A DNA stretch of 64,000 bases from Escherichia coli (GTDB lineage: Bacteria > Pseudomonadota > Gammaproteobacteria > Enterobacterales > Enterobacteriaceae): the NCBI RefSeq assembly GCF_017348835.2, contig NZ_CP071375.1. One strand, given 5' to 3'. Shown piece after piece: positions 6,721 through 64,000 of this stretch. How positions within the stretch are numbered: position 1 is the first letter of the stretch; every line of letters starts with the position of its first letter. The translations under genes were made by a program, and so were the position numbers. The notes under the pieces were generated by a model. The model did not search any database and was not told the origin of the DNA. It worked only from the letters and a program-made list of their open reading frames with translations.

Positions 6721-6723
6721 TGT

Positions 6724-7892: not shown

Positions 7893-8468
7893 TCAGTCCA
7901 TTAAATGTGACGTTTGCAAATAGTTAAGCAATAACACCGTCTTACCGTCACGTATCTCGCCGGTTTTGATCATCTCCAGCGCCTGGCTGAACGGCAGCTC
8001 GAGCACTTCAATATCTTCATCTTCGACACCGCCACCGGCGTTAGCGCGCTGATTGTCACTGTATTCGGCGATAAAAAAGTGGATTAGCTCAGTCACACCG
8101 CCTGGCGACATATACAGTTCAAATAATTTGCGCACTTCACCCACTTCATAGCCCGTCTCTTCAATCGCTTCTTTGCGAATGCACACTTCCGGTTCGTCGT
8201 TATCCAGCAGCCCGGCGCAGGTTTCAATCAGCTGCCCGCTTTCATTGCCATTAACCCAGGTAGCGACACGGAACTGACGAATCAGAACCACGGTCTTTTT
8301 CTTCGCGTTGTACAGGAGGATCGTCGCACCATTACCGCGATCGTAAACTTCACGTTTATGGCGGATAACTTCGCCATCTTTGCGCGTGAGATCGTAAGTA
8401 ATGTTGTGCAGGGTGAAATAGTTATCGGAGAGAATTTTGTCTTTAATGAGGGTGATTTGTTGCGTCAT
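7893..8468 (-). CDS. nudK: GDP-mannose pyrophosphatase (Nudix hydrolase) NudK
   Basis: ORF 7893..8495; the 191-aa product from [11 protein letters not shown] carries a Nudix box ([14 protein letters not shown] region). Start choice follows K-12. Confidence 0.9.
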
Positions 8469-8535
8469 ACCGACTCCACAGCGCGAAATGAACAATTATC
8501 TTACGCTGTGAAGTCGGGTTTGTCTGCGCAGGCTA

Positions 8536-10515: not shown

Positions 10516-10720
10516 AACGACCTTCTTTTTTGGTTGTAAAAACCTTATTCTTTATATGAGTGTTGTTATTACCCGACTTACAGGGGAATCGGCAATGTTC
10601 ATGTGCCCAGAATAAGTAACTATTTCGCTATAAACTGTGGCAGATCAAATAATCCCATCACTGACTAAATTGCGTTTCAGCGAACTGGAACATTAATGAT
10701 TTTTTGTGGAGAAGACGCGT

Positions 10721-12421
10721 GTGATTGTTAAACGACCCGTCTCGGCCAGTCTGGCCCGGGCCTTTTTTTACATTGTGCTGCTGTCGATTCTTTCCACGGG
10801 TATCGCTCTGCTAACTCTGGCGAGCAGTTTGCGCGACGCTGAGGCTATCAATATTGCCGGATCGCTGCGTATGCAGAGTTACCGCCTGGGCTACGACTTG
10901 CAAAGTGGCAGTCCACAACTCAATGCACATCGCCAGTTATTTCAGCAGGCACTGCATTCACCGGTATTAACCAACCTCAACGTCTGGTATGTGCCAGAAG
11001 CAGTAAAAACTCGCTATGCGCATCTGAATGCAAACTGGCTGGAGATGAATAATCGGCTCAGCAAGGGCGATTTGCCGTGGTATCAGGCCAATATTAATAA
11101 TTATGTTAATCAGATAGACCTGTTCGTGCTGGCTTTACAGCACTACGCTGAACGCAAAATGCTGCTGGTGGTGGCGATTTCCCTGGCTGGCGGTATCGGT
11201 ATTTTCACGCTGGTCTTTTTTACTTTGCGCCGCATACGCCATCAGGTGGTTGCCCCGCTGAATCAGCTGGTTACCGCCAGTCAGCGTATTGAACACGGAC
11301 AGTTCGACTCGCCGCCGCTGGATACCAGTCTGCCGAATGAGCTTGGTCTGCTTGCAAAAACCTTTAACCAGATGTCGAGCGAGCTGCATAAATTGTACCT
11401 TTCGCTGGAGGCGTCAGTAGAAGAAAAGACCCGCGATCTCCACGAGGCCAAGCGTCGTCTGGAGGTGTTGTATCAGTGTTCGCAGGCGCTGAACACCAGC
11501 CAGATTGATGTGCATTGTTTCCGCCATATTTTGCAGATTGTTCGCGACAATGAAGCGGCTGAATATCTGGAGCTGAACGTTGGGGATAACTGGCGGATTA
11601 GCGAAGGGCAACCAAACCCGGAATTGCCGATGCAGATTTTACCGGTGACAATGCAAGAGACGGTTTACGGCGAACTGCACTGGCAAAATAGTCACGTTTC
11701 ATCATCAGAACCGCTGCTTAACAGCGTTTCGTCGATGCTGGGACGCGGTTTGTACTTTAATCAGGCGCAGAAGCATTTTCAGCAGTTATTGTTGATGGAA
11801 GAACGTGCGACCATCGCCCGCGAATTGCACGACTCGCTGGCTCAGGTGCTTTCTTACTTACGTATCCAGTTGACGTTACTTAAGCGTTCGATACCGGAAG
11901 ATAACGCCACCGCACAAAGTATCATGGCCGATTTTTCCCAGGCGTTGAATGATGCTTATCGGCAGTTACGCGAGCTGTTGACTACTTTCCGCCTGACGCT
12001 GCAGCAGGCGGATCTCCCCTCCGCGTTGAGGGAAATGCTGGATACGTTACAAAATCAAACCAGCGCCAAACTGACCCTCGACTGCCGTCTGCCAACCCTG
12101 GCACTGGATGCGCAAATGCAGGTGCATTTGTTGCAAATTATTCGCGAAGCGGTGCTGAATGCGATGAAGCACGCCAACGCCAGCGAAATCGCCGTCAGTT
12201 GCGTCACCGCGCCGGACGGCAATCACACGGTTTATATCCGTGATAACGGGATTGGTATCGGTGAACCGAAAGAGCCCGAAGGTCATTATGGACTGAATAT
12301 CATGCGCGAACGCGCGGAACGGCTGGGCGGGACGCTGACTTTTTCACAACCTTCCGGCGGCGGCACGTTAGTGAGTATTAGCTTTCGCTCCGCGGAGGGT
12401 GAGGAAAGTCAGCTGATGTAA
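10721..12421 (+). CDS. narQ: Nitrate/nitrite sensor histidine kinase NarQ
   Basis: Two transmembrane segments, HAMP, H-box (ELHDSLAQ) and ATPase domain; GTG start at 10721 chosen to give the 566-aa K-12 product (the ORF track starts at 10706). Confidence 0.9.
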   Translation: MIVKRPVSASLARAFFYIVLLSILSTGIALLTLASSLRDAEAINIAGSLRMQSYRLGYDLQSGSPQLNAHRQLFQQALHSPVLTNLNVWYVPEAVKTRYAHLNANWLEMNNRLSKGDLPWYQANINNYVNQIDLFVLALQHYAERKMLLVVAISLAGGIGIFTLVFFTLRRIRHQVVAPLNQLVTASQRIEHGQFDSPPLDTSLPNELGLLAKTFNQMSSELHKLYLSLEASVEEKTRDLHEAKRRLEVLYQCSQALNTSQIDVHCFRHILQIVRDNEAAEYLELNVGDNWRISEGQPNPELPMQILPVTMQETVYGELHWQNSHVSSSEPLLNSVSSMLGRGLYFNQAQKHFQQLLLMEERATIARELHDSLAQVLSYLRIQLTLLKRSIPEDNATAQSIMADFSQALNDAYRQLRELLTTFRLTLQQADLPSALREMLDTLQNQTSAKLTLDCRLPTLALDAQMQVHLLQIIREAVLNAMKHANASEIAVSCVTAPDGNHTVYIRDNGIGIGEPKEPEGHYGLNIMRERAERLGGTLTFSQPSGGGTLVSISFRSAEGEESQLM

Positions 12422-12584
12422 TGCCTCCTACTGACCAAAGAATACTTGCACTTAAGGTTCAGTATAAAAGGGCATGATAATTTACATTAACTCCTTTTTT
12501 TCTCCACGATTGGCTCGTACCTTGCCGCTACAGTGAAGCAAGTCAAGCCTACAACGATACGCAGAAACACGAGGTCCTCTTTTA

Positions 12585-15500
12585 ATGGCGAATTTCTTTA
12601 TTGATCGCCCCATTTTTGCCTGGGTGCTGGCAATCCTGTTGTGTCTGACAGGTACCCTGGCGATTTTTTCATTGCCCGTTGAACAATACCCCGATCTCGC
12701 GCCACCGAATGTGCGAGTGACCGCTAACTATCCCGGCGCATCGGCCCAGACGCTGGAAAACACCGTGACCCAGGTTATCGAGCAAAATATGACCGGCCTC
12801 GATAATCTCATGTATATGTCATCTCAGAGCAGTGGCACCGGTCAGGCATCTGTCACTTTAAGTTTTAAAGCAGGCACCGATCCGGACGAAGCCGTGCAGC
12901 AAGTACAAAACCAGCTGCAATCAGCCATGCGAAAGTTACCGCAGGCGGTGCAAAATCAGGGCGTGACGGTGCGTAAAACCGGCGATACCAATATTCTGAC
13001 CATTGCTTTCGTCTCTACCGATGGTTCGATGGATAAACAGGATATTGCTGATTATGTTGCCAGTAATATTCAGGATCCGTTAAGCCGCGTGAATGGCGTC
13101 GGGGATATCGATGCCTATGGTTCGCAATATTCCATGCGTATCTGGCTGGACCCGGCGAAACTCAACAGTTTCCAGATGACAGCTAAAGATGTCACTGATG
13201 CCATTGAGTCACAGAACGCGCAGATTGCGGTTGGGCAACTTGGGGGTACACCTTCCGTCGATAAGCAGGCGCTCAACGCCACCATTAACGCCCAGTCACT
13301 GCTGCAAACACCAGAACAGTTCCGCGATATCACCTTGCGGGTGAATCAGGACGGCTCAGAAGTAAGGCTGGGCGATGTCGCCACCGTCGAAATGGGGGCG
13401 GAGAAATACGATTATCTTAGCCGCTTCAATGGTAAGCCAGCCTCCGGGTTGGGGGTAAAACTGGCCTCCGGCGCAAACGAAATGGCGACAGCGGAGCTGG
13501 TGCTCAATCGTCTCAACGAGCTGGCGCAGTATTTCCCGCATGGACTGGAATACAAGGTGGCGTATGAAACCACCTCGTTTGTTAAAGCCTCCATTGAAGA
13601 CGTGGTGAAAACGCTGCTGGAAGCTATCGCTCTGGTTTTCCTCGTTATGTATCTGTTCCTGCAAAACTTCCGCGCCACGCTGATACCCACTATCGCCGTG
13701 CCGGTGGTGTTGATGGGAACCTTCTCCGTACTTTACGCCTTCGGTTACAGCGTCAACACCTTAACCATGTTCGCGATGGTGCTGGCGATCGGTCTGCTGG
13801 TGGATGACGCCATCGTGGTGGTGGAAAACGTCGAACGTATTATGAGTGAGGAAGGACTCACTCCTCGCGAAGCCACACGTAAATCGATGGGGCAGATCCA
13901 GGGGGCACTGGTCGGGATTGCGATGGTGCTTTCGGCGGTATTTGTACCAATGGCCTTCTTCGGCGGCACCACCGGTGCCATCTATCGCCAGTTCTCTATT
14001 ACCATTGTTGCGGCGATGGTGCTGTCAGTACTGGTAGCGATGATCCTCACTCCGGCTCTGTGTGCCACGCTACTTAAGCCACTGAAAAAAGGTGAGCATC
14101 ACGGGCAAAAAGGCTTTTTTGCCTGGTTTAACCAGATGTTTAACCGCAACGCCGAACGCTACGAAAAAGGGGTGGCGAAAATTCTCCACCGTAGCCTGCG
14201 CTGGATTGTGATTTATGTCCTGCTGCTTGGCGGCATGGTGTTCCTGTTCCTGCGTTTGCCGACGTCGTTCTTACCGCTGGAAGACCGGGGCATGTTTACT
14301 ACCTCGGTACAATTGCCCAGCGGTTCAACCCAACAACAGACCCTGAAAGTCGTTGAGCAAATCGAGAAATATTACTTCACCCATGAAAAAGACAACATCA
14401 TGTCGGTGTTTGCCACCGTTGGCTCTGGCCCTGGGGGCAACGGGCAAAACGTGGCGCGAATGTTTATCCGCCTGAAAGACTGGAGCGAACGCGACAGTAA
14501 GACCGGCACCTCATTTGCCATTATCGAGCGTGCAACGAAGGCGTTTAACAAGATTAAAGAAGCTCGCGTTATCGCCAGCAGCCCGCCAGCAATTAGCGGT
14601 CTTGGTAGTTCTGCGGGTTTTGATATGGAGTTGCAGGACCACGCTGGAGCAGGTCACGATGCGCTGATGGCAGCACGTAACCAGTTGCTGGCGCTGGCGG
14701 CGGAAAACCCGGAGCTAACCCGTGTGCGCCATAACGGCCTCGATGACAGTCCGCAGTTGCAGATTGATATCGACCAGCGTAAAGCTCAGGCGCTGGGCGT
14801 TGCTATCGACGATATTAACGACACACTGCAAACCGCCTGGGGTTCGAGCTATGTGAATGACTTTATGGATCGCGGTCGCGTGAAGAAAGTCTATGTGCAG
14901 GCAGCTGCGCCGTATCGCATGCTGCCAGATGACATCAATCTCTGGTATGTCCGAAATAAAGATGGCGGCATGGTGCCCTTCTCTGCTTTCGCGACCTCAC
15001 GCTGGGAGACAGGCTCGCCGCGTCTGGAACGCTATAACGGTTATTCTGCGGTTGAGATTGTTGGGGAAGCCGCACCGGGGGTCAGTACCGGTACGGCGAT
15101 GGATATTATGGAATCGTTAGTGAAGCAGTTGCCAAACGGCTTTGGTCTGGAGTGGACGGCGATGTCGTATCAGGAGCGGCTTTCCGGCGCGCAGGCTCCG
15201 GCGCTGTACGCTATTTCCTTGCTGGTGGTATTCCTGTGTCTGGCTGCATTGTATGAAAGCTGGTCGGTACCGTTCTCGGTAATGCTGGTCGTGCCGCTGG
15301 GGGTTATCGGCGCGCTGCTGGCAACCTGGATGCGGGGGCTGGAAAACGACGTTTACTTCCAGGTGGGCCTGTTAACGGTCATTGGTTTATCGGCGAAAAA
15401 CGCCATCCTGATCGTCGAGTTTGCTAACGAGATGAACCAAAAAGGCCACGACCTGTTTGAAGCGACGCTCCACGCCTGCCGTCAGCGTTTACGCCCGATT

Positions 15501-15698
15501 CTGATGACCTCGCTGGCATTTATCTTCGGCGTATTGCCAATGGCAACCAGCACGGGTGCCGGTTCCGGTGGTCAGCATGCGGTGGGTACTGGCGTAATGG
15601 GCGGGATGATTTCAGCTACTATTCTGGCTATTTACTTCGTGCCGCTGTTCTTTGTGCTGGTGCGCCGCCGCTTCCCGCTGAAGCCGCGCCCGGAATAA
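12585..15698 (+). CDS. acrD: RND-family aminoglycoside efflux pump AcrD
   Basis: 1037-aa ORF with 12-TM RND transporter architecture ([15 protein letters not shown]-terminus). Confidence 0.95.
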
Positions 15699-15703
15699 GC
15701 AAT

Positions 15704-15737
15704 AAAAAAGGCGACATGCCAATGTGTCGCCTTTTTC
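15704..15737. terminator. Rho-independent terminator, probably bidirectional (acrD and ypfM)
   Basis: A-run, stem ggcgaca (15710-16) / tgtcgcc (15725-31), then T-run 15732-36. Confidence 0.7.
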
Positions 15738-15786
15738 AACTTTCCGATTAAGAACTTGCTCAGCAGGTTCTTGCTGTTTGTACTTT

Positions 15787-15846
15787 GTCTCAGGAATTAC
15801 TTACGAAGCATAACTTCAATAAAGTCTTTCCAGTTCCCCAGTTCAC
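15787..15846 (-). CDS. ypfM: Very small protein YpfM (19 aa)
   Basis: Reverse translation gives MIERELGNWKDFIEVMLRK*, matching my recollection of K-12 YpfM; too short for the ORF track. Confidence 0.6.
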
Positions 15847-16218
15847 GTTCAATCATAACAACCTCTCTTATAATTATGGGTATTCTACGGAAACAATATA
15901 CCGTGGTGAAGCTAATTTACTCGATTGCTGCGATGACTACCTCCGGGGGACAAACCTTATGTAAATACTATGGTCCTGCGGTGATGATTTGTATGTGATA
16001 CACAGCAACATTTCGAGATATTCATACGGCATCTAATACTGATTTAATTCTGGTTAAAATACAGACAGATAACAAGATGAATATTCTTAATGTTTACGTT
16101 AAAAATGTTTAATATTATTTAATAGTTGTTAATTTGAATACTTCGATAATGTTATATTTCCTGATAATCATTTGCAGGCAAAATGTTTTCACCCTTAAAT
16201 GAGTATTTATTCTCATAA

Positions 16219-16593
<375 letters not shown>

Positions 16594-16596
16594 TCT

Positions 16597-17724
16597 ATGT
16601 CGTGCCCGGTTATTGAGCTGACACAACAGCTTATTCGCCGCCCTTCCCTGAGTCCTGATGACGCAGGATGCCAGGCTTTGTTGATTGAACGTTTGCAGGC
16701 GATCGGTTTTACCGTTGAACGCATGGACTTTGCCGATACGCAGAATTTTTGGGCATGGCGTGGGCAAGGTGAAACATTGGCCTTTGCCGGGCATACCGAC
16801 GTGGTGCCGCCTGGCGACGCCGATCGTTGGATCAATCCGCCGTTTGAACCAACCATTCGTGACGGCATGTTATTCGGGCGCGGTGCGGCAGATATGAAAG
16901 GCTCGCTGGCGGCGATGGTGGTAGCTGCAGAACGTTTTGTCGCACAACATCCCAACCATACGGGGCGACTGGCATTTCTGATCACCTCTGATGAAGAAGC
17001 CAGTGCACACAATGGTACGGTAAAAGTCGTCGAAGCGTTAATGGCACGTAATGAGCGTCTCGATTACTGCCTGGTCGGCGAACCGTCGAGTATCGAAGTG
17101 GTAGGTGATGTAGTGAAAAATGGTCGTCGCGGATCGTTAACCTGCAACCTAACCATTCATGGCGTTCAGGGGCATGTTGCCTACCCACATCTGGCTGACA
17201 ATCCGGTACATCGCGCAGCACCTTTCCTTAATGAATTAGTGGCTATTGAGTGGGATCAGGGCAATGAATTCTTCCCGGCGACCAGTATGCAGATTGCCAA
17301 TATTCAGGCGGGAACAGGCAGTAACAACGTTATTCCGGGTGAACTGTTTGTGCAGTTTAACTTCCGCTTCAGCACCGAACTGACTGATGAGATGATCAAA
17401 GCGCAGGTGCTTGCCCTGCTTGAAAAACATCAACTGCGCTATACGGTGGATTGGTGGCTTTCCGGGCAGCCATTTTTGACCGCGCGCGGTAAACTGGTGG
17501 ATGCGGTCGTTAACGCGGTTGAGCACTATAATGAAATTAAACCGCAGCTACTGACCACAGGCGGAACGTCCGACGGGCGCTTTATTGCCCGCATGGGGGC
17601 GCAGGTGGTGGAACTCGGGCCGGTCAATGCCACTATTCATAAAATTAATGAATGTGTGAACGCTGCCGACCTGCAGCTACTTGCCCGTATGTATCAACGT
17701 ATCATGGAACAGCTCGTCGCGTGA
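16597..17724 (+). CDS. dapE: Succinyl-diaminopimelate desuccinylase
   Basis: 375-aa M20 peptidase-family ORF ([15 protein letters not shown] motifs). Confidence 0.95.
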
Positions 17725-17954: not shown

Positions 17955-18050
17955 TAAGTGGCCGGATAAGGCGTTAACGCCGCATCCGGCAATGGTGAAC
18001 GATGCCTGATACGACGCATCACGCGTCTTATCAGGCCTGGTAATCTGTCT
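17955..18050. repeat. REP element pair
   Basis: ggccggataaggcgttaacgccgcatccggca ... cgtcttatcaggcctgg; typical REP palindromes. Confidence 0.75.
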
Positions 18051-54508: not shown

Positions 54509-54601
54509 CGGTTACCTTCTCCACTTTCACAGAACATAACGGCACTTTGAACCGCCCCGGAAATCCTGGAGACTAAACTCCCTGAGAAAGAGGTAAACAG
54601 G

Positions 54602-54928
54602 ATGACTAAAAATACTCGTTTTTCCCCCGAAGTCCGTCAGCGGGCGATTCGTATGGTTCTGGAAAGTCAGGATGAATATGACTCACAGTGGGCGGCAATT
54701 TGTTCCATTGCCCCAAAGATTGGCTGTACGCCGGAGACTCTGCGTGTCTGGGTTCGCCAGCATGAGCGGGATACCGGGAGTGGTGATGGTGGACTCACCA
54801 CCGCTGAACGTCAGCGTCTGAAAGAGCTGGAACGTGAAAATCGTGAACTGCGCCGCAGTAACGATATCCTTCGCCAGGCTTCCGCTTATTTTGCGAAGGC
54901 GGAGTTCGACCGCCTCTGGAAAAAATAA
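54602..54928 (+). CDS. IS3-family transposase OrfA (HTH DNA-binding part)
   Basis: 108-aa [33 protein letters not shown]... with a leucine-zipper-like C-terminus; A-rich slippery run (ggaaaaaataatg) at its 3' end. Confidence 0.85.
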
Positions 54929-55815
54929 TGCCACTGCTGGATAAGCTGCGTGAGCAGTACGGGGTCGGACCGGTATGCAGCGAACTGCATATTGCCCCGT
55001 CAACGTATTACCATTGTCAGCAACAGCGACATCATCCGGATAAACGCAGTGCCCGTGCGCAGCACGATGACTGGCTGAAGAAAGAGATACAGCGCGTATA
55101 CGATGAAAATCACCAGGTATACGGTGTGCGTAAAGTCTGGCGTCAGTTGTTACGGGAAGGTATCAGAGTGGCCAGATGCACTGTGGCACGTCTCATGGCA
55201 GTTATGGGACTTGCCGGTGTTCTCCGGGGTAAAAAGGTCCGCACTACCGTCAGCCGGAAAGCCGTTGCCGCATGCGACCGCGTAAACCGTCAGTTCGTGG
55301 CAGAACGTCCAGACCAGTTGTGGGTGGCTGATTTTACCTGGGTAAGCACATGGCAGGGCTTCGTTTATGTGGCGTTCATCATTGATGTGTTCGCCGGATA
55401 CATCGTGGGATGGCAGGTCTCATCATCCATGGAAACAACATTCGTGCTGGATGCACTGGAGCAGGCGTTGTGGGCCCGTCGGCCGTCCGGCACAATCCAT
55501 CACAGTGATAAAGGTTCTCAGTATGTATCGCTGGCCTACACGCAGCGGCTTAAGGAAGCCGGATTACTGGCATCAACAGGGAGTACTGGCGACTCGTATG
55601 ACAACGCGATGGCTGAGAGCATCAATGGTCTTTACAAAGCGGAGGTAATACACCGTAAGAGCTGGAAAAACCGGACAGAAGTGGAACTGGCCACACTAAC
55701 GTGGGTGGACTGGTATAACAATCGACGATTGCTGGAAAGGCTGGGCCATATTCCTCCGGCAGAAGCAGAAAAAGCTTATTATGCTTCCATCGGAAATAAT
55801 GATCTGGCAGCCTGA
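54928..55815 (+). CDS. IS3-family transposase OrfB (DDE integrase catalytic domain)
   Basis: 295-aa ORF in the -1 frame relative to OrfA; rve/DDE core recognisable (WVADFTWVST ... DKGSQYVS ... DNAMAES). Confidence 0.85.
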   Translation: MPLLDKLREQYGVGPVCSELHIAPSTYYHCQQQRHHPDKRSARAQHDDWLKKEIQRVYDENHQVYGVRKVWRQLLREGIRVARCTVARLMAVMGLAGVLRGKKVRTTVSRKAVAACDRVNRQFVAERPDQLWVADFTWVSTWQGFVYVAFIIDVFAGYIVGWQVSSSMETTFVLDALEQALWARRPSGTIHHSDKGSQYVSLAYTQRLKEAGLLASTGSTGDSYDNAMAESINGLYKAEVIHRKSWKNRTEVELATLTWVDWYNNRRLLERLGHIPPAEAEKAYYASIGNNDLAA

Positions 55816-56045
55816 GTTCACAGATAAAACACTCTCCAGGAAACCCGGGGCGGTTCAAACTCGTACAGTGGCGTACCACTGGGGTCCATTCCTTCAAGTC
55901 TCAGGGAAGCCTCTGCTTTGCGGAAGCCCTCAATGCGTAACCGTGTATAGGGAGTCCTAGACATGTTTTTCCTTTGAGTTGCAGGAGTGAGGTTCGCTCA
56001 GTGAAAGCGTCAGCTCACGCAACCTCGTTAACTGACGCGCGTGAT

Positions 56046-57446
56046 TCAAGATTTATTATTACCCGATAAGCTATCACCGGCAAAATCATCATGTTCGCGG
56101 TTATCCCGACGAGTAGCTGTTTGTTTACTTATCTGAGTCGCCAACTCCTCTCCAATAGTTTGTTGGGCACGAGAAGAACTGCTACTTCGCTTCATTCTCT
56201 GGTACTCAGCAGCTCCGTTAGCCATGCTGCTTCCCATATGGCTTGCCATGCGGCCAGCACGCGAGAATGAAGCAAACCCCTGACTTCCTCCACTGGCGCT
56301 ACCTGAACTGCTCCCTGCAGACGAACCACTGTAACCGCCTGAGGTTTGGCCTCCAGAAGTATCTACAGAACCGGTATCTTCCCCGCCGCCAAATCCTCCA
56401 CCGGAACCGCCTCCGCTGCCTGAACCAGATTCTTCGTCCATGGCAGCTTGCGCAGACTCGAATGCTGCCTTTAATGCTGAAGCTCCGCCGCTGACTTGAG
56501 CTGATGCCCCCATTGCCATTGCTCCAGCACCGCTGATGGCAGTAGCGGCTGCGCCGGTAATCATACCCGCCCCAAATCCACCAATCCCTTGTAAAGAAGC
56601 CCCTCCTACAACACCTGATAACAACAGTGGTAGCTTATTAGTTAATACTAACAGGATAATTGACGCCAGAAGCAAAACTATAAGACTATTAAGATCAGGA
56701 ACATCATCTTTAATAAGAGAAAAATATTGATCTATAAATGATTGTCCAATCCCAATAATTAATGTCATCGTGAATAATTGAATGCCAATCGATAAAACAG
56801 TTCGTAAGTAATTAATTGCTATATCAGAGGTCCATTTCGAACCACCAAACCCAAGCAATATAACTCCTGCATAACATAACACCCATGCAGAAACCAACAT
56901 GATTAGCATATTTATCGCTATAAGGGACATCACTACCAAAACGATTATCGCGACTGTTATCATAATGGTGGATATCATTGGCGACCAAATTGATGCGGCT
57001 GAACTGATCTTGGTTAATATCGCAAACGCCATATCAACTATGCTTGAGGGAGAAATACCAATACTTATTTCTAAAGCGTTTGCTGCAAGTTGTCTCATTG
57101 AATTAATTATGGATTGCGATATGGATGGACCGTTGATTAAAAGATAATAAAAAAAACCAATGACGGCAAAAAAGCGAACTATTTCAGCAAGTACCCCTGT
57201 CAACCCTTCCCCTTGCATCGCCATCATACCAAATGTCCAAACCATACTTATTAATACCAGCCCCCAGAAGAGCCAATTTGCATAGTCAGCAATTACTGCT
57301 GTCCATGTACTGGCTACTTGTTGAAACTTATCTAATAAAGTATCAAGTAGCCCGCTACTATCTAATTGACCAGCATAGGCATTAATAGAAAAGAAAAGTA
57401 TGATACCTAAAAAGGTGAGCTTACTTACTATTTTCATGATTACCAT
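56046..57446 (-). CDS. trbL: TrbL/VirB6-family conjugative transfer membrane protein
   Basis: 466-aa ORF with signal peptide, several TM helices and a long Gly/Ser-rich hydrophilic C-terminal tail, the TrbL/VirB6 architecture; synteny with trbJ and a small lipoprotein gene upstream. Confidence 0.65.
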   Translation of the reverse strand: MVIMKIVSKLTFLGIILFFSINAYAGQLDSSGLLDTLLDKFQQVASTWTAVIADYANWLFWGLVLISMVWTFGMMAMQGEGLTGVLAEIVRFFAVIGFFYYLLINGPSISQSIINSMRQLAANALEISIGISPSSIVDMAFAILTKISSAASIWSPMISTIMITVAIIVLVVMSLIAINMLIMLVSAWVLCYAGVILLGFGGSKWTSDIAINYLRTVLSIGIQLFTMTLIIGIGQSFIDQYFSLIKDDVPDLNSLIVLLLASIILLVLTNKLPLLLSGVVGGASLQGIGGFGAGMITGAAATAISGAGAMAMGASAQVSGGASALKAAFESAQAAMDEESGSGSGGGSGGGFGGGEDTGSVDTSGGQTSGGYSGSSAGSSSGSASGGSQGFASFSRAGRMASHMGSSMANGAAEYQRMKRSSSSSRAQQTIGEELATQISKQTATRRDNREHDDFAGDSLSGNNKS

Positions 57447-57631
57447 TCTCGTTTAGGGCTTGGTTTATTATTACTCCGTAGAGCACATTTATCGTATTTA
57501 TGTTCATCAAATTTATTATCTGGCATCGATAAACAATCTTTATCATTTTTATCGCAAGAACATATGGCCAATAAACTGATCAGAATAAATACAATCAAAA
57601 AATTATCTTTCATTCTGCGTTTCCTCACCAA
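57440..57631 (-). CDS. Small lipoprotein in the TrbK (IncP entry-exclusion) position
   Basis: 63-aa ORF with a hydrophobic leader and Cys-containing lipobox-like motif (LLAICSCDK); overlaps the trbJ stop and trbL start, as trbJ-trbK-trbL does in IncP plasmids. Confidence 0.45.
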   Translation of the reverse strand: MVRKRRMKDNFLIVFILISLLAICSCDKNDKDCLSMPDNKFDEHKYDKCALRSNNKPSPKREW

Positions 57632-58419
57632 ATTCGCTTCGGGCTTGGTGTATTCTCTCCAGCTAACGCTTTTTCATCAGCGGCTATCTGTTGTGATTCT
57701 TTATCTGCCTGAGCCTGTGCCAGTGTTGCTGCAGCGTTTTGTTGGGCTACCAGAAGTGAGCGGATTTGCAGTAACTGATTTGTCTGTGCACTGGCAAGCT
57801 GGTTTGCCGCCTGAATAGCTTCCATTTGCCCTTGTGCGCCGCTTGCCTGAGTTTGTAATTCGGCAAGATTATCAGCATCGCTCTGCAGGGTGTTCTGCTG
57901 CTCGTCAATTACCTTAAATACTGCGTCATTGGCCTTTTTACGCGCCCCTGAGCTATTCTGTTCAGCTTCACGCAGTGCACTAATTTCAGACGCGGTACAT
58001 TCAACATTGCTGTTAAAGCAAGACGATGTCCTGTAGTAGTTAACATCCTGATAGCGTTTCAGGTACGCATCGAGACTCCCGGCCTGATTCTTGTAGTAAT
58101 TAAGGGTATCCTGCACCTGCAACAATTTATTAATTGTTGAATTTGCCTGGTCCCAGATATAGGCCGCAGGAGCTACGGTGTTCTGCAGCATGTTTTCATA
58201 CTGCTGCAGCTGCGTCTGGTACTGCTGGATTTGTTTAGTCACAGCCTGAACGTTGTTAACTGCGCTGATTGTGGTCTGAACCACATTAGTGCCATCAATA
58301 ACGGGAATTCCGGCCTTCACCGGTAATGCCATGACGGACGCCACGAAAGGAACTATTAAAGCTTTTTTAGCGGCTAAAATCCCTCTTTGTGATGAAACCA
58401 CTCGGAACTTTAAATTCAT
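57625..58419 (-). CDS. trbJ: TrbJ/VirB5-family conjugative transfer protein
   Basis: 264-aa ORF with signal peptide and Gln/Ala-rich coiled-coil stretches typical of TrbJ/VirB5 minor pilus/adhesin proteins. Confidence 0.6.
   Translation of the reverse strand: MNLKFRVVSSQRGILAAKKALIVPFVASVMALPVKAGIPVIDGTNVVQTTISAVNNVQAVTKQIQQYQTQLQQYENMLQNTVAPAAYIWDQANSTINKLLQVQDTLNYYKNQAGSLDAYLKRYQDVNYYRTSSCFNSNVECTASEISALREAEQNSSGARKKANDAVFKVIDEQQNTLQSDADNLAELQTQASGAQGQMEAIQAANQLASAQTNQLLQIRSLLVAQQNAAATLAQAQADKESQQIAADEKALAGENTPSPKRIW
58365..58379. promoter_or_regulatory. KorB-operator-like palindrome TTTTAGCGGCTAAAA (copy 1, inside the 5' end of trbJ)
   Basis: Perfect inverted repeat containing TTTAGCGGCTAAA, identical to the IncP-1 KorB operator consensus TTTAGC(G/C)GCTAAA. 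Confidence 0.6.
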
Positions 58420-58499
58420 TTGCTCACCTCTTTTTCAACAGATTAGTAATATTTAACACTCTGTCTGTTAACAGACGCAGGTATATAGGAAACCACACA

Positions 58500-58865
58500 T
58501 TATTTATCCAAGATTTTATCCATAATGTTCCTTAGTTCTTGCCGAGTTGATTCTATTTTCGCAAGCAAGGTTCTTATCAGTGTGGGTGAAAAATCAACTG
58601 TTCGAGGATCATTTGCGAGCCATAATTTAAGTAATCCGCCAAGTCTTCCAAGATCAGCATTTACTCGGCTAAGTTCATTAACCTGTTTTATATCTACGAT
58701 AGAATCAACCTGATAACCCATTGCAACTCTACGAACAAAACAGGCAACACTTAATCCAGATGCTTCTGCATTTTCTTGGATGAGAATTTTTTCTTCGGGT
58801 AAACAATAAACTTTTATTGGCGTACTATTTTTTCTAGTCTGAGTAACTTTCATATAGCTCTCCAT
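58500..58865 (-). CDS. MobC-family relaxosome accessory protein (ribbon-helix-helix)
   Basis: 121-aa ORF; VYCLPEEKILIQENAEASGLSVACFVRRVAMG ... LSRVNADLGRLGGLLKLW fits the MobC-family pattern; lies directly beside a candidate oriT region. Confidence 0.55.
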   Translation of the reverse strand: MESYMKVTQTRKNSTPIKVYCLPEEKILIQENAEASGLSVACFVRRVAMGYQVDSIVDIKQVNELSRVNADLGRLGGLLKLWLANDPRTVDFSPTLIRTLLAKIESTRQELRNIMDKILDK

Positions 58866-58939
58866 ACAGGCGGTAGCCTGGCAGCCTCGCAGAGCAGGAC
58901 GCCCTTGAGCCGCGATGCGGCGAATAGGGAGTGGTAAAG

Positions 58940-58995
58940 TTGGAACACCGTAGCGGTGGGCCCACTTTACATGTCCTGCCCTGCAGTTGCCGTTG
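58940..58995. promoter_or_regulatory. Candidate origin of transfer (oriT-like region)
   Basis: 10-bp perfect palindrome GTGGGCCCAC (58956-58965) immediately followed by CTTTACATGTCCTGCCCTGCAG, which resembles my recollection of the IncP nic region (core TCCTGCCC); adjacent to the MobC-like gene. Confidence 0.35.
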
Positions 58996-59252
58996 TATAT
59001 CTGTGCACGACAATGTGTATTTCAGTGTACAGGATGTGTTTTCTTAGCGTATTAATATAGGATTACTGGAGTAAATTTCTGCAGCAAATGTGTTTTTTGC
59101 AAGGAAACTATATTTCTCCCTTTTGAAAATGACCTTTAGTAGTTATAAATGGACGTCCACCAACTGTATTTATGTTTCGATATATTGTAAGAAGTCTTTC
59201 ATTTTCCGATGCACTTTTTTACTTACCTTGTCAGAGCATGTGCATTGCAGAT

Positions 59253-59265
59253 TTTAGCGGCTAAA
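59253..59265. promoter_or_regulatory. KorB-operator-like palindrome (copy 2)
   Basis: aTTTTAGCGGCTAAAATc; exact match to the IncP-1 KorB operator core, in the 675-bp intergenic region. Confidence 0.6.
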
Positions 59266-59501
59266 ATCTGCCTCCCTATGCCTAAAGCTAGGGGCGTACC
59301 TCATATGTCATAAAATCTACCTCAAGTGTCAATATACCAAACGTGTAAGTAATCTCTTCTTCTGGCGTACAACCATCGGTCTTTGGCCGATTCTAGATTT
59401 GAAAGCGCCTGCTCAGGCAGGTGATTTCAAAGCCTGAATATACTGGTTGATCCTGAATAACCTGCAAAGGAGTTAAAAAATCAGGCCTCTGTAGCACACT
59501 G

Positions 59502-59562
59502 GCGGGCCGTTACAGCACATCACCGGGCCGTAACGACACGTTACCGGGCCGTTGTAGCTCGT
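59502..59562. repeat. Three direct iteron-like repeats with 21-bp periodicity
   Basis: CGGGCCGT recurs at 59503, 59524 and 59545 with similar flanks (..TACAGCACAT / ..AACGACACGT / ..TGTAGCTCG); the third overlaps the stop codon of the putative initiator gene. Confidence 0.5.
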
Positions 59563-60314
59563 TTTATCCTAGAATTTTGTATCTCAATGCCAATCGCTAG
59601 AAATTGTTTGCTATCTTCTTTTAATCTCCGCCGATAGTTACGTAATGTCATATTATTGGTACCTTCACCACTGACAGCTAAAATTAATGTATCAATATGC
59701 CAGCCGCCTTTAGGATCGTGCTTATGTGTTAATATATGACGTGCAACTGCTTGGCTAATACCATGCTGGAGACGAGCAATAGGACCTGGATCATGATGAA
59801 AATGCAAATCTCGCTTCAACAACATTACCAATGCAACACCCAAGCGTACTCTCCATAGGTTACGTTCACCACCAGTTAGAGGATTACGCCTAGTCATTGG
59901 TGAGGGTACGACATGGTCAATTAAACCGCCTAGAATGCAATAACCGTTTTTTTCTAAATCTGGCGTTACTATTTCAACAGTTGCCACACGTAGATCAACG
60001 AGTAGTTTTTTAATTCGATCATAACTGTATTGTGCATCGGATAGAGTTCGGCGTACTTTCGCTGGATCTACTAATAACTCGATTCCTCCATCAGAAATTT
60101 CTCGACGTTTCTCGGCCACATAGAGCATTGTTTCCACAATATCCGCATGACGTTGTCCTAGTCTTCCGGTAACTCGACAACGACCAAAACTAGTCTCCAT
60201 CCACTGCCCCTTCAGCGCCAAGGGACGTTGACTTGGTTGGTACAGAATGACTCTAGCCTGCAGAGCTGTGCTAGTAGGTGTAACTTTATTACCAGTTATC
60301 ATTTTCTGCACCAC
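59541..60314 (-). CDS. Hypothetical protein, possible replication initiator (RepC-like by position)
   Basis: 257-aa basic protein directly downstream of the RepA-like helicase gene and ending in the iteron-like repeats; assignment rests on gene order, not on recognised motifs. Confidence 0.35.
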   Translation of the reverse strand: MVQKMITGNKVTPTSTALQARVILYQPSQRPLALKGQWMETSFGRCRVTGRLGQRHADIVETMLYVAEKRREISDGGIELLVDPAKVRRTLSDAQYSYDRIKKLLVDLRVATVEIVTPDLEKNGYCILGGLIDHVVPSPMTRRNPLTGGERNLWRVRLGVALVMLLKRDLHFHHDPGPIARLQHGISQAVARHILTHKHDPKGGWHIDTLILAVSGEGTNNMTLRNYRRRLKEDSKQFLAIGIEIQNSRIKRATTAR

Positions 60315-60330
60315 TCAATGAAGACATACA

Positions 60331-61146
60331 TTATTTTGCTATTTGTTTTTTATTCTTCGATTTGAGTTGCGTTATCCTTAATACTCCTCCCTCATGTCTC
60401 TGTAACCAACGTTCTGGCGTACGTTCTCCATAATTTGCTTTATTTATTCCAAATCTAACAAATTGACCTCGAACATCATCAGAAATATCATACGTCTTCG
60501 CTTCTAAGGCGGTCATGCCCGCCAGATAAGATTGCCACCGTATATTATCAACCAGGACGCTACTACCCCTGCTTGCCTGCTGTATATCACCAACTCCCAT
60601 CGTGGCAGAGCCTTTGTTTGAATGGTGTAGAAATATAATCGAACACCCTGTATCAGCAGCAATACCTTCTAGCTTTCCAATGACTTTGGACATTGCTCCG
60701 CTATTATTTTCATCTTCCTGGTGGAAACGGCGAAGAGTATCCAAAATTATTAACCGTCTACTTTTTGAAATCTCATTAATCAAGTTGCTCCAACCTGGCG
60801 AGAAAATATTTGGACACTTCCCTACCAAAGGTTCGACAAGTAGCTTATCAGCAACAATCTGCTGCTGACGTGCTGTTAGATATTTTCCCAAAGCATATAG
60901 ACGATGGTGAATGATGGTTGCAGAGTCCTCCACAGGTAAATATGCCACTAACCCCGTTGGATATTCACCAAAGTTTAAAAGATCTACACCACAAGTAATC
61001 TGCACAGCCAGTTGCAATGCCAGCATTGACTTTCCAACGCCTCCCGGAGAAACAATCGCTCCGATAGTACCAATAGCCAAATTAGGCAAGACGTAATCAA
61101 TTGGTTGCGGCTTAGCTTCAAATGCTTCCATTATGTTCAATGACAT
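60331..61146 (-). CDS. RecA-fold AAA_25 ATPase, RSF1010 RepA-like replicative helicase
   Basis: 271-aa ORF with Walker A (SPGGVGKSMLALQLA) and Walker B-like (RLIILDTL) motifs; size and motif layout as in IncQ RepA. Confidence 0.6.
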   Translation of the reverse strand: MSLNIMEAFEAKPQPIDYVLPNLAIGTIGAIVSPGGVGKSMLALQLAVQITCGVDLLNFGEYPTGLVAYLPVEDSATIIHHRLYALGKYLTARQQQIVADKLLVEPLVGKCPNIFSPGWSNLINEISKSRRLIILDTLRRFHQEDENNSGAMSKVIGKLEGIAADTGCSIIFLHHSNKGSATMGVGDIQQASRGSSVLVDNIRWQSYLAGMTALEAKTYDISDDVRGQFVRFGINKANYGERTPERWLQRHEGGVLRITQLKSKNKKQIAK

Positions 61147-61151
61147 TGCTG

Positions 61152-61403
61152 TTACCTACCTAAAACAATACCGGGTCTGGCTGCTTTAAACATTGCTGAT
61201 TTACGATCCGCAATCCACTGTTCCACTTCGGATAACTGCCATGCAACATTTCGGCTCGTAAGTGCTATACGGCGAGGAAACTCGCCTCGCTGTTCAAGGT
61301 TATAAATAGTGCGGGCTGACAATGGGATCATTTCCAGAAGTGTTTTTCTGTTAATGAGCGTGCTATGTGCCTTTGTTTGCATCTGCCTTCCTCCTGTTTC
61401 CAA
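61152..61403 (-). CDS. alpA: AlpA-family prophage/island transcriptional regulator (excisionase-like)
   Basis: 83-aa ORF with the AlpA HTH signature (LSARTIYNLEQRGEFPRRIALTSRNVAWQLSEVEQWI). Confidence 0.7.
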   Translation of the reverse strand: METGGRQMQTKAHSTLINRKTLLEMIPLSARTIYNLEQRGEFPRRIALTSRNVAWQLSEVEQWIADRKSAMFKAARPGIVLGR

Positions 61404-61459
61404 TCAGGCCTATACAATGCCAAGCATTACCACTTGCTAAAACCTATTCATTGGCTAAA

Positions 61460-62431
61460 ATGGTTGACATGAAAATTACTATCTGGGAAGGCTGTGACCT
61501 CACAGTTGCAGCTGCAATTAAATTATTTGTAGAGCGTAGTTCTCCGTACTCCATATTTTCACGGAGGTATCCAATACTGCGTCTCATACAGGAAGTTATT
61601 GATCCAGCAGTAGCTGATTATGTAAATTCCCTGCCACCAAGTCATAAAGACTACATTTCTGGAGTAAATCTAGGATTTAGTGAAGTACTTAAAAAATTGG
61701 GTTTAAACGTCGTAGTACAGGCACAAAGACTTCTTTTGCGTAATTTCGTTCTGACTTTAGATCAACAAACTTCTCTTGATAAATGCTTTACCGCTACGAT
61801 TGAGTCTCTTATTGAATTAGTCAGTGAATGCGCATCCAAGCGGCCGAAGAAATCCTCTCCTGCAAAAGGAGTAACTATAAATTCACAGCGTAAGCTCGGT
61901 TATTGCGAGTTCTGCGGTAATCTAACCGAATTTTCCAAGTTGATCAGTGAGATATCAGAATTTGTTGCTAACGATAATGAGTTCCCCGTTCATGAAAAAC
62001 AGGTCCTTAGTCATCGATATTGTTCTGACCATAGGCCCAAACTCACCAATGGTCTATGGAATCCCAAATACAGACAAGGAAAGCGGTCTCTCGAACAGTT
62101 CAATAAAGAATTAATAAGGCTTAGACGGCAATGCGCTAAACCTCATAAAGCTAACGCAAACACAGGGGATATATTGATTGATACATATTTTCATGAGTGG
62201 ATGCAGGGTCAAACTTTAACCCCAGCAGATCTAGATAAACTTAGGAATATCGCCAGACGAATGGTTGACTCCAAATTCACTGATACTAAGAAAAAAATAA
62301 TCATATTAAAACACCAAGGTTTTAACCAGTTTGAAACCGCACAGGTTTTAGAAAAAAATCACTACACAACTATGACAAAGCAGGCTGTGTCCAAGGCCTT
62401 AGCGTCTGTGAGGAAAGAATTTTATATTTAA
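61460..62431 (+). CDS. Hypothetical protein with Cys/His cluster and C-terminal helix-turn-helix
   Basis: ORF track starts at 61367, overlapping alpA; a more plausible start is the ATG at 61460 (MVDMKITIW). Contains CEFCGN ... HRYCSDH and a C-terminal HTH-like segment; no family recognised. Confidence 0.45.
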   Translation: MVDMKITIWEGCDLTVAAAIKLFVERSSPYSIFSRRYPILRLIQEVIDPAVADYVNSLPPSHKDYISGVNLGFSEVLKKLGLNVVVQAQRLLLRNFVLTLDQQTSLDKCFTATIESLIELVSECASKRPKKSSPAKGVTINSQRKLGYCEFCGNLTEFSKLISEISEFVANDNEFPVHEKQVLSHRYCSDHRPKLTNGLWNPKYRQGKRSLEQFNKELIRLRRQCAKPHKANANTGDILIDTYFHEWMQGQTLTPADLDKLRNIARRMVDSKFTDTKKKIIILKHQGFNQFETAQVLEKNHYTTMTKQAVSKALASVRKEFYI

Positions 62432-62856
62432 AATAGTATATCCACGAGCTATTATGGTGGCAGTTTAAGTCTTAATACCATCCACTTTATTGAATTATAA
62501 CCAGCCACTTACGAAGGTTTTTCGCGATTACCCTGCTTCAAATTGATGATTTTGAAAATACAGTATTATAGTTTATTGTTTGTAGCGCAGCTGTAAGCGT
62601 TATGCAAAATGGATCACAGTGATACGACCTCACCAGTAAATCACTGAAGCCGATCTGTAATGACATAGAACGAATTGGTTTTATGGTTATGCAATGGCTC
62701 ATCCCCTTACTTGTCCCTGACCATAAAAAGCATTCGCTTTCCTGAAAGCAAGTCTAAGCCAAGGGGCGTTTACAGTTGTCTTATCTTGACTCATTAGGTA
62801 CTGGCTTAATGATTAGAATCATGTCGGTGGCATTTAGGTCCAAATATGCCCAAAAT

Positions 62857-62869
62857 TTTAGCAGCTAAA
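62857..62869. promoter_or_regulatory. KorB-operator-like palindrome (copy 3, central A variant)
   Basis: aTTTTAGCAGCTAAAATt; same arms with a central A instead of G/C. Confidence 0.5.
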
Positions 62870-62900
62870 ATTCGTCTTCTCATGTAGGGTCAAGAAGCTT

Positions 62901-63098
62901 ATGACTAAACCTATTGATTATGTGAATTACCTTGTGAGTAATACTCGTAGGATGGAATCTTCCAAAACTCTGACAATTCACTCTGAATGCATGGTAACAA
63001 AGAACAGTTTAAACCATGGTCTGTTCAGCGTTAAATTTCTCAAGATAGACTTCCATTTCGCGAGTCCACCTAGGGGTAGGTACCGAGGTGATCATTAG
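62901..63098 (+). CDS. Small hypothetical ORF (65 aa), doubtful
   Basis: Begins about 30 bp after KorB-like copy 3 but overlaps the 3' end of the convergent 209-aa ORF; weak ribosome-binding site. Confidence 0.2.
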   Translation: MTKPIDYVNYLVSNTRRMESSKTLTIHSECMVTKNSLNHGLFSVKFLKIDFHFASPPRGRYRGDH

Positions 63099-63638
63099 CC
63101 AAGGAAACCACCATACAAGCATGAAGAGTAACATAAGCGGTGCGATCATTTCGGCCGAAGAATGAGAAACTATATACATAATGAATAATATTAGTAGAAC
63201 TGTGTTTACAATCTGACCTACCAGAAAAAGACGCCAGCGAAAACAATGCCATTTCCTGTTGAACACAATCCGTCCATCCCGTTCTTCGAGCCAGTTACGC
63301 CACGGCTTGAGATAACCAGCCCGCAACCCATAACGATCACACATTATTACAGCCAAATCCTGCAGCCGATAATTATACAAGCCTGTGAGCCGATAAAGGC
63401 TGCGCTGACGAAGCTCACGCTTTGCCAGACGGACCGCATTTTTATTCAAATATGGCTGTGTCAGCATTTGCTCTAGCCGGCGCTTCCTAAGATTGAGTAG
63501 TCCACGAAATACACTTCCAGATTCAGCATTAATTACTCTGTGACGAACTACACCGAGTGCAATATAGATACACAGCAATAGCCAGCCGGTCTTAGGGTAT
63601 TGATTCATCCATTGTATAATTACAGACAACTCAGGCAC
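63009..63638 (-). CDS. Hypothetical membrane protein (209 aa)
   Basis: Two to three predicted TM helices separated by an Arg-rich loop; KorB-like copy 4 lies about 55 bp upstream of its start; no family recognised. Confidence 0.5.
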   Translation of the reverse strand: MPELSVIIQWMNQYPKTGWLLLCIYIALGVVRHRVINAESGSVFRGLLNLRKRRLEQMLTQPYLNKNAVRLAKRELRQRSLYRLTGLYNYRLQDLAVIMCDRYGLRAGYLKPWRNWLEERDGRIVFNRKWHCFRWRLFLVGQIVNTVLLILFIMYIVSHSSAEMIAPLMLLFMLVWWFPWLMITSVPTPRWTREMEVYLEKFNAEQTMV

Positions 63639-63692
63639 TTTTATTTTTCCTTTTTATGCAATCCAGATAAAACCAGTAAAGATTCAGTAAAT

Positions 63693-63705
63693 TTTAGCGG
63701 CTAAA
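63693..63705. promoter_or_regulatory. KorB-operator-like palindrome (copy 4)
   Basis: aTTTTAGCGGCTAAAATt, between the 209-aa membrane protein gene and the integrase gene. Confidence 0.6.
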
Positions 63706-63761
63706 ATTGCTCTCCTGGCGTAGAAAAAAGAAGCACACCAACTTAACTTACTGATTATTAA

Positions 63762-64000
63762 CTACTTACTAGTCCATTCATCAATCATATTCGCCCAATC
63801 TTGTAGCATCTCAGCCCTCTGCTCACGATATTCTGCCTTGTTATAAACAGCTCGTACCCCTTTTTGTTCATGGGCAAGGCTCTTCTCAATCCAGTCAGTA
63901 TTGTACCCGGCCTCATGTAGCAAGGTGCTGGCTGTACGCCGTAAGTCATGGGGACCAAACTTAGGCAACAACTCCCCTTCTTTCTGAGCCAGGCGATACG
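63762..64000 (-). CDS. int: Tyrosine recombinase (P4-type integrase), C-terminal part; the gene continues past the window end
   Basis: Frame open to the window edge; C-terminal sequence ...GPHDLRRTASTLLHEAGYNTDWIEKSLAHEQKGVRAVYNKAEYREQRAEML contains the catalytic H-x-x-R and Tyr region of phage-type integrases. Confidence 0.75.
   Translation of the reverse strand, partial: YRLAQKEGELLPKFGPHDLRRTASTLLHEAGYNTDWIEKSLAHEQKGVRAVYNKAEYREQRAEMLQDWANMIDEWTSK

Follow-up and report, generated by a model that had tools for sequence, protein, structure and literature searches.

Among the closest described relatives of the locus studied here, a segment of Escherichia coli DNA resembling the origin of transfer (oriT) of IncP plasmids, are the oriT of plasmid RP4/RK2 and the relaxase-less islands found beside guaA. 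In RP4, binding of the accessory protein TraJ to a 19-bp repeat, located 8 bp from the nick site (nic), is needed for cleavage by the relaxase TraI (PMC7314908). In addition, the traJ-II motif of RK2/RP4 has been equated with the described oriT (Li et al., 2018, PMC6206304). As to the islands, GIsul2 is inserted at guaA, lacks a relaxase and encodes TrbJ, TrbK and TrbL, and IncP plasmids have been proposed as its helpers (Guedon et al., 2017, PMC5704250). The islands of PIME subfamily 1 (PIME1), also beside guaA, carry int, alpA, luxR, repA, traJ, trbJ and trbL; they excise on entry of pB10 or pKJK5 and possess an IncP-like oriT with a conserved nick site, next to which PIME1EcRHB23-C07 has a 17-bp repeat (bioRxiv 10.64898/2026.01.12.698999).

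We analysed a stretch of 64,000 nucleotides of E. coli DNA (contig NZ_CP071375.1; hereafter the window), whose sequence matches the chromosome of E. coli PE164 (NZ_CP114128) at 100% identity. The segment of interest, positions 58866–59000, sits in a small island inserted beside guaA and has no oriT annotation in RefSeq. A previous sequence-only reading had proposed this GC-rich segment, upstream of a gene labelled MobC-like, as a candidate IncP-type oriT that a helper TraI could use. Our preferred interpretation, to which we assign a probability of roughly 0.78, sees in the segment a functional IncP-type oriT, belonging to a small integrative mobilizable element at guaA of the GIsul2/PIME1 type and used in trans by the TraI of a helper.

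Homology and anatomy of the origin

The 145-bp segment was compared with plasmid origins using BLAST. The closest match is the oriT of the p14EC001a-type enterobacterial IncP plasmids of ~50 kb (79.9% identity over 132 nt, 91% of the segment, E 7e-23), followed by RP4-derived oriT records (75.9% identity, E 1e-13), plasmids of the pYDC107_41 type (75% identity, E 4e-14) and the R751-type oriT (about 71% identity, E 3e-3). Hence, the alignment to RP4 and R751, proposed earlier as a check, is significant in both cases. The alignments cover positions 58868–58999 and, in another search, 58788–58999, and in the IncP plasmids they fall in the traJ-traK intergenic region. For the base-level comparison, pBS228 (NC_008357, IncP-1alpha) and RP4-derived records were used as the RP4 reference; the RP4 nick region given in the sequence-only reading, CTTCACCTATCCTGCCCGGCTGACGCC, is identical to the base in pBS228, and the probe used to locate the RP4-derived records matched them at 100% identity. 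A MAFFT alignment of the island with p14EC001a, pYDC107_41, RP4-type and R751 sequences shows that the homology extends from the start of traJ to ~20 nt past the nick; beyond this point the plasmids share a block leading to traK, whereas the island sequence is unrelated.

The same segment is recognised by the Rfam covariance model RF01760, "traJ-II" (Weinberg, 2010, PMC2864571), with 86.9 bits (E 2.8e-16; gathering score 40). The match spans model positions 1–104 of 104, and the three paired elements are shared. As controls, the RP4-type and R751 sequences score 112.6 and 111.7 bits, respectively, and those of p14EC001a and pYDC107_41 98–99 bits. Rfam files traJ-II as a cis-regulatory RNA, while at the DNA level the same sequence is the IncP oriT (PMC6206304); the family can be used as an oriT detector.

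The gene adjoining the segment, previously called MobC-like, turned out to encode TraJ and not MobC in the Pfam sense: it matches the NCBIfam TraJ equivalog NF010451 with 159.8 bits against a cutoff of 134 and gives a NikA-like match in Pfam (1e-22). The protein is 64% identical to TraJ of pYDC107_41, 60% to that of p14EC001a and 50% to that of RP4. The G+C content of positions 58866–59000 is 60%, as compared to 36% in the adjacent traJ and 42% in the whole island. Judged from these alignments, the segment is a genuine, well-conserved oriT of the IncP-plasmid type, and the oriT of the island is descended from that of an IncP plasmid.

The features of the origin are the following:

58500–58865, minus strand: traJ, relaxosome accessory protein gene (PGAP start 58853), with the segment of interest immediately upstream
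58869–58999, plus strand: oriT core homologous to the oriT of IncP plasmids, beginning just upstream of the traJ start and reaching ~20 nt beyond the predicted nick
58883–58981, minus strand: RF01760 traJ-II match; in the model, an outer stem encloses two hairpins
58889–58900, plus strand: distal box GCAGAGCAGGAC, which repeats the nick region in inverted orientation and forms the outer stem of traJ-II (92% complementary to 58973–58984)
58909–58921, plus strand: small inverted repeat GCCGC-GAT-GCGGC, between TTGAG and GCGAATAGGG (two-sided changes in 3 of 5 pairs, 36 origins)
58934–58950, plus strand: left (nick-distal) repeat arm GTAAAGTTGGAACACCG, 17 nt, 82% complementary to the right arm, 3-nt spacer
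58954–58970, plus strand: right (nick-proximal) repeat arm CGGTGGGCCCACTTTAC, predicted TraJ binding site (from conservation and the pairing of TraJ motif and arm)
58956–58965, no strand: palindrome GTGGGCCCAC, within the right arm, incidental
58973–58979, plus strand: nick hexamer GTCCTG followed by C, predicted nick 58978/58979 (from the alignment to ATCCTG/C of RP4 and R751)
58979–59053, no strand: conserved stretch beyond the nick, on its leading side, candidate for the traJ promoter by analogy with RP4

Read on the plus strand, the boxes GGCGGTAGCC (58869) and GCCTCGCAGAGCAGGAC (ending at 58900) are followed by TTGAG, the small inverted repeat, GCGAATAGGG, the 17-bp inverted repeat, 8 nt and finally GTCCTG/CCC, where the slash marks the predicted nick. 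The 8 nt separating the repeat from this position (ATGTCCTG) reproduce the spacing of RP4. From the aligned sequences we infer nicking at 58978/58979, and by analogy with RP4 a 5′ end at 58979 would lead transfer toward higher coordinates. The palindrome GTGGGCCCAC and the core that follows it, (C)TTTACATGTCCTGCCCTGCAGTTGCC at 58965–58991, are present as previously described. However, the functional unit is not this palindrome, which is contained in the right arm of the 17-bp repeat, the counterpart of the RP4 TraJ site. The palindrome exists only because base 58963 is C, as in E. coli HS, while most relatives (L088 and L008–L017) have T at this position.

On the leading side of the nick, 10–16 of every 20 positions between 58979 and 59053 are invariant among the PIME1 relatives. 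This region possibly contains the traJ promoter, considering that in RP4 traJ transcription starts 24 nt beyond nic (PMC7314908); a scan for a sigma-70 consensus promoter of traJ beyond the nick gave no match. Repeated TGTGT motifs occur at 58994–59053, and from ~59000 onward the sequence is unrelated to the TraK side of IncP origins.

Constraint, covariation and the GTCCTG nick variant

The conservation of the origin was analysed at 80 loci, taken from species-representative genomes, that have a TraJ relative. At about 40 of them the repeat is followed by 8 nt and [AG]TCCTG/CCC, and 15 further loci, checked by Rfam, have the traJ-II motif with a TCTTG core. In the inverted repeat of 39 aligned origins, two-sided changes affect 12 of the 19 pairs and 82.9% of the cells are paired, as compared to 33–47% in slid controls; no shuffle reaches the observed score. 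The sequence TCCTGCCC is invariant across the same 39 origins. In the outer stem, formed by the distal box and the nick region, 99.1% of the cells are paired across 36 sequences. The complementarity of these two elements was considered as a possible new observation and rejected, as it corresponds to the outer stem of the known traJ-II motif.

The two arms of the repeat differ in their constraint. Among 12 close relaxase-less enterobacterial relatives, the right arm together with the nick region (40 nt) constitutes the most conserved stretch (17 of 20 positions invariant), while the left arm is the least conserved (3 of 20). This distribution fits a proximal arm read by a protein and a nick region read by the relaxase. 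In the relatives whose origins are nearly invariant, the TraJ proteins have diverged to 82% identity and the flanking non-coding DNA is variable.

Two further covariations were detected, one within the DNA and one between the DNA and TraJ. The last base of the distal box changes with nick position −6 (T/C with A/G), GGAC accompanying GTCCTG and GGAT accompanying ATCCTG with 3 exceptions in 47 sequences, and another of its positions changes with nick position −3 (G/A with C/T; CAAG with TCTTG, CAGG with TCCTG); the hexamers naturally occurring in the family are ATCCTG, GTCCTG, ATCTTG and GTCTTG. As for the protein, the N-terminal beta-strand motif of TraJ tracks the arm type without exception at 44 loci: IKVYCLP goes with TGGGCC[TC]AC (35 of 35 loci), [IL]RVPV with TTAGCTAAC (7 loci) and IKVRVLP with TGGGGTCAC (2 loci). 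The pair present in the window is a matched one, of the RP4/p14EC001a type. In the relatives from Buttiauxella agrestis and Citrobacter koseri (L011 and L017), the TraJ match lacks the N-terminal beta-strand and may represent a frameshifted or truncated traJ beside an intact-looking oriT.

The nick of the window reads TGTCCTG/C, with G in place of A at position −6; it thus departs from the canonical ATCCTG, which the sequence-only reading gave for RP4, and from the consensus (C/T)ATCCTG(C/T). The same GTCCTG is found in every close relaxase-less enterobacterial relative (L008–L014, L016, L017, L088 and E. coli HS). Among plasmids, it occurs only in the pYDC107_41 type (L005 and L015), with which NC_022650 was grouped by its traI. 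Since GTCCTG is native to complete conjugative plasmids and the distal box changes in step with it, this comparison indicates that the variant is a maintained state and not the result of decay; we read it as a natural specificity variant and not as a defect. The arm and TraJ of the island are of the type of one plasmid group (RP4/p14EC001a), and its nick is of the type of another (pYDC107_41).

No homologue of TraI or TraK was found anywhere in the 64-kb window; therefore, any nicking must come from a helper. The idea of a TraI acting in trans thus fits the island well. On the other hand, the "IncP-1 helper" named in the sequence-only reading is probably too loose a description, given that pB10 and pKJK5 performed poorly in the preprint, whose authors suggest another, unidentified helper for PIME1EcRHB23-C07 (bioRxiv 10.64898/2026.01.12.698999). 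We propose the plasmids of the pYDC107_41 type as candidate natural helpers; IncP-like plasmids with GTCCTG offer a testable lead for the helper left open by the 2026 preprint. A broader possibility, which we put forward only tentatively and consider rather doubtful as a whole, is that the relaxase-less enterobacterial PIME1 islands form an oriT specificity class of their own, pairing TraJ and arm of the RP4/p14EC001a type with the GTCCTG nick and its matching distal box. If this were true, their natural helpers would be enterobacterial IncP-like plasmids and not the classical ones of IncP-1 beta/epsilon, which would explain the failed mobilisation in the PIME preprint; in truncated copies such as that of PE164, the stranded origin would make the chromosome donate its guaBA side in an Hfr-like (high frequency of recombination) manner.

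Of 5426 complete E. coli genomes, 109 carry a related traJ-oriT module, in all cases on the chromosome. In this set, PIME1 has 109 hosts and the pYDC107/p14EC001a-type plasmids 76; ~1.5 overlaps would be expected, and none is found among the names listed. The cargo of the islands includes defence and resistance functions, and their spread depends on helper plasmids; therefore, knowing which relaxase recognises the origin decides how the islands spread. The general picture of IncP-type origins and mobilizable islands remains unchanged.

Minimal IncP-like origins were also seen on two small ColE1-type plasmids (with RNAI matches) that are typed as "non-mobilizable": L006 (NZ_AP027752, 2.8 kb, origin at ~2440–2500) and L007 (NZ_CP036183, 3.3 kb, origin at ~1–75). 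In each of them, GCGAATAAGG is accompanied by a perfect palindrome of 20 bp and by the nick region. One origin reproduces the p14EC001a type (arm GGGCCCAC, ATCCTG) and the other the pYDC107 type (arm TAGCTAAC, GTCCTG), and downstream of the nick both resemble the island and not the large plasmids.

Alternative explanations and proposed mode of transfer

Several observations weigh against a working origin. RP4 TraI and VirD2 have been reported to require ATCCTG in vitro (PMC3772185). The TraK-binding side of the IncP oriT is absent from the island in the multiple alignment, and traK itself is absent from the window. A clone of oriT plus traJ from PIME1EcRHB23-C07 was only weakly mobilised by pB10 and pKJK5 (bioRxiv 10.64898/2026.01.12.698999). 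Finally, the island is truncated in PE164, a strain that has no IncP-type helper. Taken together, the non-canonical hexamer, the missing TraK side, the poor mobilisation of a related island's oriT, the truncation and the lack of a helper in the genome are what one would cite in favour of a dead relic, descended from an IncP oriT and no longer functional in transfer in this lineage of relaxase-less islands. Yet a relic would hardly keep its nick region and proximal arm near-invariant while TraJ diverged to 82% and the flanks varied, nor its 60% G+C within an island of 42%. Moreover, complete conjugative plasmids, among them pYDC107_41 and L015, have GTCCTG as their native hexamer, and the change at −6 is matched by a compensating change in the distal box. 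We therefore regard the relic explanation as improbable. A mere chance likeness, based on a GC-rich palindrome and a short shared 8-mer, would be in keeping with the fact that the 10-bp palindrome and TCCTGCCC are each no rarer than chance: perfect 10-nt palindromes number 46 in the window vs ~64 in mononucleotide shuffles, and TCCTGCCC occurs three times on its plus strand. This explanation is refuted by the alignments, with E values of 1e-13 to 7e-23 over ~130 nt, by the full-length match to the covariance model and by the adjacent TraJ equivalog, and its probability is negligible.

The segment could also act mainly at the level of RNA and transcription, as a structured 5′ leader and operator of the traJ-trbJ-trbK-trbL operon with no role as transfer origin. 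Indeed, the transcript of the minus strand has a folding energy of −67.2 kcal/mol (z = −4.4), and one position of the outer stem is a G-U pair in 34 of 36 sequences, which can form only in the mRNA sense; furthermore, in RP4 the transcription of traJ begins beyond nic, and the repeat is where TraJ represses its own expression (PMC7314908). Folded as DNA, the repeat alone gives z = −1.7, so that the hairpin energy by itself is weak evidence. An exclusively regulatory role is nevertheless at odds with the homologous sequence of RP4 being, by experiment, the oriT (PMC7314908, PMC6206304), with the co-variation of TraJ motif and arm, which is a protein-DNA signal, and with the invariant TCCTGCCC and the fixed 8-nt spacing, which are relaxase features. 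As a sole function we find it unlikely; the regulatory and origin roles are not mutually exclusive, and both are expected.

If the segment is a working origin, transfer would proceed as follows. The island TraJ, a ribbon-helix-helix protein, would bind the nick-proximal arm (58954–58970) of the 17-bp repeat, and a TraI relaxase of the MOBP11 class, provided in trans by an IncP-like conjugative plasmid residing in the same cell, would be recruited. TraI would cut the plus strand after GTCCTG (58978/58979), at a distance of 8 nt from the downstream end of the repeat, and stay on the 5′ C at 58979, while the coupling protein and the type IV secretion system of the helper would pilot the strand into the recipient. 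With this polarity, the side with oriV (the putative origin of vegetative replication, see below), rep, alpA, luxR and int would enter first and the traJ-trbJKL side last. The minus-strand transcript of the same DNA forms the structured traJ leader that Rfam models as traJ-II and, by analogy with RP4, the region probably serves also for TraJ autoregulation.

The PE164 island and its comparison with known systems

From the distal end, the island comprises trbL, a small open reading frame (ORF) in the position of trbK, trbJ, traJ, the oriT segment, an AT-rich stretch with three repeats, an ORF of 257 amino acids (aa), a gene for a RepA-family helicase, alpA with a divergent luxR-family gene, a hypothetical gene and a tyrosine integrase, after which comes guaA. 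The integrase occupies 63762–64000 and runs off the end of the window (RefSeq annotation of the PE164 locus). The remaining features are:

54548–55858, plus strand: IS3-family element, in place of the distal end of the island (from the alignment with the intact relative L088)
56046–57446, minus strand: trbL, mating-pore gene (NCBIfam TrbL 270 bits, above cutoff; PGAP annotation)
57440–57631, minus strand: small ORF of 63 aa in the trbK position between trbJ and trbL (unannotated in RefSeq)
57625–58419, minus strand: trbJ, mating-pore gene (NCBIfam TrbJ 379 bits, above cutoff; PGAP annotation)
59001–59560, no strand: AT-rich region, candidate oriV adjoining oriT (G+C 38%; repeat search)
59541–60314, minus strand: ORF of 257 aa (PGAP annotation)
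60331–61146, minus strand: RepA-family helicase gene (PGAP annotation)

The region 59001–59560 is likely the putative iteron-type oriV of the island. It contains three copies of CGGGCCGTTACAGC, spaced by 21 bp, at 59503–59558, overlapping the 3′ end of the 257-aa ORF, and a related island has an iteron-type oriV downstream of repA (bioRxiv 10.64898/2026.01.12.698999). A perfect 12-bp inverted repeat (59247–59271) and several short direct repeats are also found in this region. The 257-aa ORF beside the iterons has no match in Pfam or NCBIfam. No family match was obtained for the 63-aa ORF, which occupies the position that trbK, the entry-exclusion gene, has in IncP plasmids; its N-terminus is signal- or lipoprotein-like, and there is a weak similarity (E 0.075) between its C-terminal tail and that of TrbJ.

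The window aligns with the intact relative L088 (strain 2017.20.01CC) only at 55859–64000 and up to 54547. As compared to L088, ~12.5 kb are absent (L088 positions 4845–17359), and in their stead the IS3-family element abuts trbL. The lost DNA includes a toxin-antitoxin (HigA-like) gene, a pair encoding an ATP-dependent endonuclease and a UvrD-helicase and two DUF262 genes (putative defence functions), together with attR, yfgI and yfgH; the 15-bp att core AAATCATTCCCACTC was not found in the window. Having lost its attR end, the PE164 island cannot excise as a circle, while its origin itself is intact. In PE164 this origin could at most drive the neighbouring chromosomal DNA into an Hfr-like transfer that begins with the guaA-guaB side. 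The single plasmid of PE164 is, by its annotation, a decayed F-type replicon with no MOBP relaxase. The IS3-family transposase WP_370649875.1 is also encoded on plasmid pPE164. Elsewhere in the window, Rfam detects naRNA4 (RF02564) at 17960–18037 and, within the IS3-family element, an ALIL frameshifting pseudoknot at 54883–54999; in the RefSeq annotation of PE164, hyfR carries a frameshift and pdeF an internal stop.

A related guaA island in the laboratory commensal E. coli HS (L089, NZ_CP185286) carries a traJ-oriT module (12001–12576) that is 96.7% identical; its replication and regulator module is a different one, interrupted by IS1. Therefore, the traJ-oriT-trbJKL block is shared between islands of different backbones.

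Among plasmid origins, that of RP4/RK2 has in common with the island an imperfect inverted repeat whose internal AA/GG mismatch is the same, the 8-nt spacer, the TCCTG/CCC nick region and the boxes GGCGGTAGCC, GCCTCGCAGAGCAGGA, TTGAG and GCGAATA(A/G)GG; in both, traJ adjoins on the trailing side and TraJ IKVYCLP is combined with the arm TGGGCC[TC]AC. The island differs in having arms of 17 bp instead of 19 bp, GTCCTG instead of ATCCTG and 75.9% identity, and it is devoid of the TraK-binding region, traK, traI, traH and traG of RP4. The p14EC001a-type oriT (NZ_CP024128 and about 100 similar records) is the closest match overall: its right arm differs by one base, and the loop/arm layout and the TraJ type are alike; unlike the island, these plasmids have ATCCTG with the matching GGAT distal box, and possess traK-L-M and traI. 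The pYDC107_41 type (NZ_CP025711; also NC_022650 and L015) comprises the only plasmids seen with the ACATGTCCTG/CCC nick and the GGAC distal box of the island, and its TraJ is the closest to that of the island (64%). However, its arms are of the R751 type (TTAGCTAAC) and its TraJ beta-strand reads IRVPVLP; therefore, its accessory-protein specificity class differs.

Turning to the islands, SGI1-type and GIsul2-type elements, like that of PE164, have no relaxase or coupling protein, carry a few mating-pore genes and are thought to borrow the relaxosome of a helper (PMC5704250); unlike the PE164 island, SGI1 has an unrelated oriT and IncC helpers. In GIsul2-like loci (L040, L054 and others, judged by gene order alone), traJ-II is located upstream of trbJ and not of traJ. 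Such an arrangement, with the traJ-II/oriT element upstream of trbJ and ~3.3 kb from a traJ-like gene, was seen in L020, L040, L054, L060, L064, L068, L069 and L079; in this second island group, the PtaRNA1 antitoxin RNA (RF01811) lies beside traJ, and the layout may be GIsul2-like. Likened by its described gene content, PIME1EcRHB23-C07 shares with the PE164 island the guaA-adjacent integrase, the divergent alpA/luxR pair, repA, traJ, trbJ, trbL and the lack of a relaxase. Of the traits that define PIME1, the PE164 island displays the guaA-adjacent tyrosine integrase, divergent alpA/luxR, repA with a candidate iteron oriV, traJ, trbJ and trbL; unlike a complete PIME1, which is bounded by attL and attR and has an accessory region, it is cut by the IS3-family element and is devoid of cargo and attR. 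The PE164 element is thus a truncated relaxase-less mobilizable island of the GIsul2/PIME1 type, a kind that has already been described.

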